A DNA stretch of 64,000 nucleotides from Synechococcus sp. (GCA_051439425.1 JBFRWD010000077.1:1-64000); one strand, 5' to 3'; counted from the first letter of the stretch, positions 22,774 through 22,950 are shown. Numbers and translations: made by a program. The notes: a model not told the origin generated them from the letters alone.

Positions 22774-22950
22774 ATGGCTACCATGAGAAAATCGTTTGTA
22801 CGCCTTTCCAATGCGTTTCAAAAAGTGCTGGAAGATATTCTTAGGAACTTTCAACCAGAACATGATGACTGTCCAAAAACTGGAACGAGGACTCTAAAAC
22901 ACGATATCTACAAAGAAAATAAAAAGCACAGGTTACTTTATAGCTATTGA
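22774..22950 (+). CDS. 58-aa small protein, AtpTheta (atpT/Norf1)-like; not in the ORF track
   Basis: GGAGG at 22763 then MATMRKSFVRLSNAFQKVLEDILRNFQPEHDDCPKTGTRTLKHDIYKENKKHRLLYSY; amphipathic N-helix plus F-x-P-x-x-DD-x-P-x-TG motif. Confidence 0.6.
   Translation: MATMRKSFVRLSNAFQKVLEDILRNFQPEHDDCPKTGTRTLKHDIYKENKKHRLLYSY

Follow-up and report, generated by a model that had tools for sequence, protein, structure and literature searches.

An uncalled but transcribed gene, probably a second member of the AtpTheta family, near the N-ATPase operon of a Synechococcus genome

In Synechocystis sp. PCC 6803, the protein AtpTheta (AtpΘ, gene atpT, formerly Norf1) has been described as a small soluble inhibitor of ATP hydrolysis by the F-type ATPase (Song et al., 10.1101/2021.07.30.454416; Baumgartner et al. 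2016, PMC5126843). According to the preprint, AtpTheta proteins are about 39-70 aa long and share five conserved positions, which in Synechocystis numbering are aromatic residues at 13 and 22, acidic residues at 16 and 27 and a proline at 30; the N-terminal helix on its own is as inhibitory as the full peptide, the acidic residues matter, far-Western blots showed binding to subunits a and c, and two atpT homologues per genome were counted in 88 of 318 genomes (10.1101/2021.07.30.454416). The inhibition has been reported as partial (PMC9317440). In Synechocystis, norf1 lies at 298826-298972 on the minus strand (PMC5126843), and atpT is a free-standing gene with a 143-nt 5' leader (PMC9241938 supplement 1).

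We analysed a stretch of 64,000 nucleotides of Synechococcus sp. (GCA_051439425.1 JBFRWD010000077.1:1-64000), referred to below as the window; the presence of chlD (TIGR02031) in it fits a cyanobacterial host. The preliminary description of this DNA had pointed to an ORF of 58 aa with a strong GGAGG site and an amphipathic N-terminal helix, situated 435 nt after atpG, and the coordinates, the ribosome-binding site and the computed amphipathicity all bore this out. The ORF, here named atpT2, occupies 22774..22950 on the plus strand (58 codons and a stop codon) and its translation is MATMRKSFVRLSNAFQKVLEDILRNFQPEHDDCPKTGTRTLKHDIYKENKKHRLLYSY. A Shine-Dalgarno sequence GGGAGG is located at 22762..22767 (+), 6 nt 5' of the ATG, and in an alignment of the window with two orthologous metagenomic loci, L088 and L089, the Shine-Dalgarno region GGAGGTAT was identical and both ribosome-binding site and start codon were unchanged. 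Residues 10-27 of the protein have a hydrophobic moment of 0.77, a value reached by 8 of 5000 shuffles of residues 5-27. AlphaFold2, run with a 15-row alignment, predicted one helix at residues 2-26 and another at 42-56; the mean pLDDT is a modest 63.8, with 70-80 in the part formed by the first helix, and the second helix is of low confidence. Hydrophobicity averages -0.17 over the most helical stretch, and the protein, which contains 12 lysines and arginines and 7 aspartates and glutamates, has no membrane helix. The exact atpT2 protein was not found in a collection of 15 billion proteins and was therefore recorded there by no gene caller; the other AtpTheta-like copy of the same genome, hereafter copy 1, was found in that collection. 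Cluster names offered nothing beyond "hypothetical protein", Pfam and NCBIfam scans of atpT2 gave chance-level rows alone (E 0.06-0.07), and a profile search of PDB sequences yielded no AtpTheta chain, its top row being a uteroglobin fusion at the chance level of E 0.054.

A published atpT probe primer (PMC5126843 Table 1; PMC9241938 Table S1) served as the anchor for the family. The primer matches exactly at G184:C1:298939-298962(-), inside a family match and at the norf1 coordinates, and the translated gene at this site encodes 48 aa with Y13, E16, F22, D27 and P30. Used alone as a seed, the published AtpTheta protein gave matches in 141 of the 401 sampled genomes of the phylum and nothing in the genome of the window; BLASTP of atpT2 against it likewise yielded no alignment. 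The relationship was detected at the level of profiles. We compared an alignment of 30 canonical sequences (A3), which were found with published AtpTheta alone and owe nothing to the window, with an alignment of 15 sequences of the TRPL type (A4), atpT2 included, and hhalign matched the two over 41 columns with a probability of 98.1% and an E value of 1e-13. Since the profile of this subfamily agrees with an AtpTheta profile that had been seeded independently of it, we assign atpT2, on sequence grounds, to the AtpTheta family as a member of a divergent branch, so that the assignment proposed in the preliminary description stands. Searches of all 96,148 six-frame segments of the genome with single HMMs were less decisive. 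An HMM of the 30 canonical sequences, independent of the window, ranked copy 1 first (E 0.018) and atpT2 third (E 0.14), the latter a suggestive but non-significant result. The second rank was taken by G000:C65:22674-22871(-), also non-significant (E 0.043), which contains I-F-A-P-P-P-K and later D-D-Y-P-T-V-G and is possibly a third, very distant AtpTheta-like ORF. With a 21-row canonical HMM, copy 1 came first (3.8e-9), atpT2 second (2.2e-7) and the next of the same segments at 0.098, but this search is partly circular because an atpT2-containing profile had supplied the rows of the HMM in the first place. Across the 401 sampled genomes, a 4-row profile detected short R-x-F-x-P-x-D-D-Y-P-x-x-G-V-Q-P-F proteins in 57 and a 35-row profile detected family matches in 145; the motif F-x-P-x-x-D-x-Y-P-x-x-G-V-Q-P-F, which the preliminary description had given in similar form for the family, was seen in the canonical alignment. 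As a separate observation, proteins of 96-101 aa at L037 1492-1779(-), L046 1477-1764(-) and L172 carry a Nif11 domain (Pfam E 2e-12) fused to an AtpTheta core of the form F-S-P-x-H-D-D-Y-P-x-x-G-V-Q-P-F; such fusions constitute an extra family match in the genomes G158 and G447 and the only match found in G420.

After its N-terminal helix, atpT2 carries the pattern R-x-F-x-P-x-x-D-D-x-P-x-x-G. With an offset of +4 (alignment A2), four of the five published positions are kept as E20, F26, D31 and P34, and K17 stands in place of the first aromatic residue; copy 1 keeps three of the five. Eight residues are invariant in the 30 canonical members (R20, F22, P24, D27, Y29, G33, Q35 and P36), and atpT2 retains five of them (R24, F26, P28, D31 and G37) and changes the remaining ones, Y29 to C33, Q35 to R39 and P36 to T40. 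The exchange of Q for R is common to the whole lineage, and C33 and T40 are peculiar to atpT2; the tyrosine and the proline normally present at these two sites hardly vary among 35 family members, and atpT2's own orthologues retain them. Given the lost conserved residues, the function of atpT2 may be shifted or weakened. The replacement of G-V-Q-P-F by G-T-R-P-L-K-H-D-I-Y-K-E together with a basic tail, after which we term this the GTRPLKHD branch, is found in both copies of the genome and in the relatives G401-G406.

Copy 1, the more canonical of the two, is located at G000:C123:85722-85886, encodes 55 aa and is about 50% identical to atpT2. In a phylogenetic tree atpT2 fell into one group with L088, L089 and P0002 (support 87/85), and copy 1 belonged to a separate clade (100/99); the tree did not place the two copies of genome G401, and the second of these was not counted as an atpT2 orthologue. 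The earlier label of a divergent paralogue, in which the exchange of VQPF and the basic tail were taken as its marks, is thus right as to the existence of a second copy and has to be corrected as to the marks, which are lineage-wide traits shared by copy 1, with only C33 and T40 peculiar to this ORF. Copy 1 is preceded by a GerMN gene and followed by a DUF3611 gene, an order common to G401 and G403, and a GerMN gene also precedes atpT in G405 and G406. More widely, a GerMN (Germane) gene was observed directly 5' of atpT in two cyanobacterial families (G000 C123, L005, L011, L033, L032, L035 and L036), and in L005 and L011 an HSP20 gene in turn precedes the GerMN-atpT pair. Other neighbours of atpT were a nicotinate phosphoribosyltransferase gene in the genus g4 and a TPR gene plus a YbjQ gene in the genus g19.

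Taken as a whole, we consider it probable that atpT2 is a free-standing AtpTheta paralogue whose target is F0F1, the N-ATPase or both. By homology with the described family, for which induction in darkness or at low energy is characteristic, atpT2 would accumulate at low cellular energy, would bind a rotary ATPase through the amphipathic helix at its N-terminus and the acidic patch in its centre, and would thereby block the reverse, ATP-consuming run of the rotary F-type ATPase.

The region upstream of the ORF is consistent with a free-standing gene. Similarity to L088 and L089 begins, in blastn and in the alignment, at 22609, a point separated by 270 nt from the stop codon of atpG and by 165 nt from the ATG, and the conserved block 22609..22773 (+) matches L089 at 77% and L088 at 71% by blastn; for the preceding stretch, 22339-22608, blastn found no counterpart in either locus. 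The block includes a -10-like TAGACT at 22638-22643 (+), which was inferred by reading and is not among the sites of the consensus scan, and a hairpin GGCGGA..TCCGCC at 22650-22673 (+) in the consensus fold, whose 4 compensated pairs in 3 sequences are a hint only. In the three sequences the leader is conserved at least as well as the coding part. We read the block as a putative promoter of atpT2's own with a 5' leader. Two RNA-library contigs described below share an end at 22662, which would give a leader of at least 112 nt; the shared end is a weak hint of the 5' end of the atpT2 transcript and only that because contigs prove neither start nor strand. A consensus scan of the interval from atpG to the downstream P-type ATPase gene showed no terminator-like site and 5 promoter-like sites, none of which we used, against 2.7 expected, and Rfam gave no match on 22300-23520 at E<=1.

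The N-ATPase operon upstream of atpT2 was recognised with NCBIfam models on the plus strand of the window. The beta gene (atpD, 11772-13316) matches its alt_F1F0 model over the cut-off and is followed by the genes for epsilon (13313-13741, alt_F1F0 models), AtpQ (13728-14063), AtpR (14154-14462), subunit a (14437-15129, just under the cut-off with 301.1 against 302.1), subunit c (15202-15507, over the cut-off), subunit b (15512-16273, just under it with 222.2 against 224.7) and alpha (atpA, 16280-17833, over the cut-off). The gamma gene, atpG, is located at 21439..22338 (+), 435 nt 5' of atpT2, and scored 324.8 bits with TIGR03323 against a cut-off of 282.35. Between atpA and atpG an insert of about 3.6 kb (17834..21438) splits the operon; in it Pfam identified a sulfotransferase gene (18309-18944, minus strand) and a gene for a PhyH-type dioxygenase (20454-21305, plus strand) with a weak match to a "chlorinating enzyme" model. 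We also observed an HSP20-family gene at 11259-11732, 39 nt before atpD, and likewise an HSP20 gene at the operon head in locus L167. The N-ATPase gamma gene is present in three of the four genomes of the genus and was not seen in G403, which is 85% complete. In G401 and G402, atpA and atpG are directly adjacent and lack the insert, and no AtpTheta-like ORF was found near these operons among the profile matches; the atpA-atpG region of the window has been rearranged.

The position of atpT2 behind atpG was not found at the loci of its orthologues. L089 has a 149-aa fragment of an unrelated ORF, then atpT2 and, 411 nt further on, a clear orthologue of the P-type ATPase, and there is no atpG 5' of atpT2. 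In L088 the gene after atpT2 is chlD, in convergent orientation, which in the window is the gene after the pump, and no C-terminus of atpG was found within 505 nt 5' of atpT2. The second copy of G401 lies beside pta, on a contig other than that of its N-ATPase; as a side observation, this pta (L047 133-2005) is present as two ORFs (354 and 237 aa) with the PTA_PTB domain divided between them, which may be a frameshift or an assembly error. To have atpT2 behind atpG is thus a peculiarity of this genome and of the strains 95-99% alike to it. Examined as a member of the N-ATPase operon, atpT2 came out negative, with a gap of 435 nt, an upstream block of its own and absence beside atpG in G401, G402, L088 and L089, and these data indicate a transcription unit of its own outside the operon.

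At the level of the family, an association with N-ATPase operons does exist. We surveyed 80 loci (of 519 confirmed relatives; 63 of the 80 with cyanobacterial titles) with at most 10 kb on each side of the N-ATPase gamma gene, 1.25 Mb in total, and found an AtpTheta-family ORF in two of them, both among the 63 cyanobacterial loci, with E values of 4e-21 and 2e-18 and nothing else at E<=1. L124 has a canonical AtpTheta gene (4114-4269) that runs directly up to atpD; L167 has an HSP20 gene, then the canonical AtpTheta gene (1815-1964) and, 31 nt on, atpD. The operons of L124 and L167 are far apart in sequence, with 74% identity in beta and 53% in gamma. About 0.23-0.32 occurrences were expected by chance within the flanks of +/-10 kb, which gives a Poisson P of 0.02-0.04 that is rough and assumes independence. 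Because they lie 0-31 nt before atpD, the operon-head genes of L124 and L167 are probably co-transcribed with it. Like atpT2 they are of the AtpTheta family, adjoin an N-ATPase operon and are co-oriented with it, and an HSP20 gene at the operon head is common to L167 and the window; unlike atpT2, a divergent second copy that follows atpG after a gap of 435 nt and brings an upstream block of its own, they are of the canonical VQPF type and precede atpD. Two or more family matches, which are not copy numbers, were present in 10 of the 23 sampled genomes with N-ATPase gamma vs 20 of the 122 without it (Fisher p 0.009, or 0.017 without the genome of the window, kinship being ignored). In the 22 other N-ATPase-positive sampled genomes no match lay beside gamma among the matches listed, the nearest being 18 kb away (G214). 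AtpTheta genes thus seem to be tied to N-ATPase operons in some cases; the pairing is real for L124 and L167, and for atpT2 it comes from one genome. This pairing appears to be absent from the literature that we searched, and the text of the AtpTheta preprint contains neither "N-ATPase" nor "synten".

N-ATPases work in the ATP-consuming direction by design. The preliminary description had suggested a dedicated N-ATPase regulator. In this explanation copy 1 would serve the thylakoid F0F1, and atpT2 would have diverged to stop ATP use by the Na+ N-ATPase at energy shortage. In favour of this explanation, atpT2 adjoins atpG in the same orientation; within the genus a second copy occurs only in genomes with N-ATPase gamma (G000 and G401); and the precedent of canonical AtpTheta directly before atpD in mutually distant operons, the HSP20 gene before atpD in the window and the excess of multiple family matches in N-ATPase-positive genomes point the same way. 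Against it, both other orthologous loci with DNA lack atpG 5' of atpT2, the second copy of G401 is separated from its N-ATPase, and G402 and G406 have an N-ATPase and one family match each. The operon-head AtpTheta gene of G446 is that genome's only family match and hence no dedicated extra copy, and G447 has two matches. Furthermore, a family ORF downstream of gamma was found in none of the 80 other N-ATPase gamma loci, so that linkage across genomes is not kept for atpT2, and with the operons of G401 and G402 free of AtpTheta-like ORFs and the upstream block that belongs to atpT2, the proposal of a dedicated regulator is not supported and appears unlikely to us. We hold similarly doubtful its extension to the family, in which AtpTheta-type microproteins would brake the Na+ N-ATPase as well as the H+ F0F1, duplication would have split the job, atpT2 with its altered C-terminal half and C33/T40 would be tuned to the N-ATPase, and elsewhere a single AtpTheta would be built into the operon head behind HSP20.

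Comparative and transcript data speak for atpT2 as a real gene. A word-based search returned two relatives of atpT2 at 67-68% identity, and a scan of metagenomes recovered the DNA of two orthologues, L088 (68% identity) and L089 (62%). The dN/dS ratio of the window copy is 0.22 vs L088 and 0.29 vs L089, with dS of about 0.9, and ranges from 0.22 to 0.37 over all pairs. Differences are commonest at the third codon position, with counts by codon position of 14/7/21 in comparison with L088 and 14/14/21 in comparison with L089, and we conclude from these substitution patterns that the reading frame is under purifying selection relative to the two metagenomic orthologues. In two sediment metatranscriptome runs of one study, which were chosen by the atpT2 stretch and derive from a strain 95-99% alike, contigs span the gene from 22662 to 23262 (X2) and from 22662 to 23067 (X4); contigs cannot show the strand, the ends or the level of a transcript. 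Small pieces of these libraries cover 23343-23501, and there is almost nothing over the body of the P-type ATPase gene. No X2 or X4 contig covers atpG, and such an uncovered stretch proves nothing; a DNA run is continuous over 21563-22697. The variant in the RNA libraries keeps the atpT2 frame with three differences in the ORF, two synonymous and the third, in X4 only, changing L54 to S, the residue of the orthologues. We conclude that atpT2 is a genuine, transcribed gene.

These data bear on a further explanation, that atpT2 is a decaying or neutral duplicate, either a redundant copy being lost or one whose transcript acts as RNA with the frame irrelevant. C33 and T40, which replace near-invariant residues retained by atpT2's own orthologues, the absence of a gene call and a leader at least as conserved as the coding part are compatible with it. 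Nevertheless, it is very unlikely in view of the low dN/dS on the pairs with the window copy, the intact frame, start codon and ribosome-binding site, and the RNA-library variant, which keeps the frame and has as its one replacement the orthologues' residue; moreover, the N-terminal helix, sufficient for inhibition in the published work on AtpTheta (10.1101/2021.07.30.454416), is intact in atpT2.

Of all the genes beside AtpTheta-like genes in this lineage, a P-type ATPase gene is the one most often kept. In the window, Pfam and NCBIfam identify it downstream of atpT2 as a P-type IIA cation ATPase of 929 aa (23459..26248, plus strand). Its orthologues lie beside AtpTheta-like genes in G401 and G405 (69% and 55% identity) and also in G406 and L089, so that an AtpTheta-like gene is within about 1.5 kb of a pump orthologue at five of the ten lineage loci with DNA context. 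The distance from gene to pump is 509 nt in the window, 411 nt in L089, 65 nt in G405 and 176 nt in G406, and copy 1 of G401 is divergent from the pump at about 1.5 kb. The other five loci (copy 1 of the window's genome, G403, G402, copy 2 of G401 and L088) have no pump neighbour. The unit kept across genomes is atpT2 with the downstream P-type ATPase/chlD neighbourhood; the linkage to the pump is explainable by inherited gene order, because all cases come from one family-level lineage. Directly 5' of the pump start lies a conserved block of about 280 nt (23180..23458, plus strand), which is 75% identical to L089 1170-1450, is as conserved as coding sequence and had no Rfam match at E<=1; it may be a leader or a regulatory RNA of the pump. 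A prediction of the complex of atpT2 with the P-type ATPase, run without controls, scored 0.00 and is no evidence on binding in either direction. The micropeptides known to regulate P-type pumps have a membrane helix. That atpT2 is a partner of the pump, co-expressed with it or acting on it and so curbing another ATP consumer in a low-energy programme, would accord with the five of ten linked loci, with the RNA-library contig from atpT2 to 23262 and the small pieces beyond it and with L124, where a P-type ATPase (35% identity) follows the N-ATPase operon, but we regard it as highly improbable, since the linked cases share one lineage, the pump has its own conserved upstream block, the atpT2 protein is devoid of a membrane helix and the known AtpTheta partners are F0F1 subunits (10.1101/2021.07.30.454416).

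The analysis adds to the AtpTheta family a second copy that is transcribed although no gene caller recorded it, a divergent branch with GTRPLKHD and a basic tail that single-sequence searches miss, and comparative evidence for an occasional tie between AtpTheta genes and N-ATPase operons. If it were true that an AtpTheta paralogue controls the N-ATPase, this would be the first regulator for the N-ATPase, and the two copies would form a natural paralogue pair for the mapping of target specificity. Since the evidence for an N-ATPase pairing of atpT2 is weak, its value at present lies mainly in annotation and in a testable lead.

In comparison with the described systems, atpT2 most resembles Synechocystis AtpTheta. 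Both are predicted or known to be small soluble proteins (58 and 48 aa, respectively) with an amphipathic N-terminal helix, and both genes are free-standing, as far as the conserved upstream block of atpT2 indicates, with a long leader (at least 112 nt in atpT2 and 143 nt in Synechocystis). They agree at four of the five conserved positions and match at the profile level, and the two-copy state is known for the family. In contrast to AtpTheta, the atpT2 branch has G-T-R-(P/T)-L-K-H-D-I-Y-K-E in place of G-V-Q-P-F-x-G-E, and atpT2 itself has a basic aromatic tail, a second predicted helix at 42-56 (of low confidence) and no aromatic residue at the site of position 13. The changes of Y to C33 and of P to T40 occur in atpT2 alone, and no similarity to Synechocystis AtpTheta is detectable with single sequences. 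IF1 of mitochondria and zeta of Paracoccus are named as functional analogues of AtpTheta in PMC9317440 and in the preprint (10.1101/2021.07.30.454416), and the working mode is likely the same, with a small, helical inhibitor that keeps a rotary ATPase from running backwards at a weak ion gradient; they have no sequence relation to AtpTheta, and they bind F1, whereas AtpTheta bound subunits a and c in the far-Western experiments. As two copies have been reported in 88 of 318 genomes in the preprint, atpT2 is best regarded, on the comparisons made here, as a divergent member of a known family and not as a new kind of protein.
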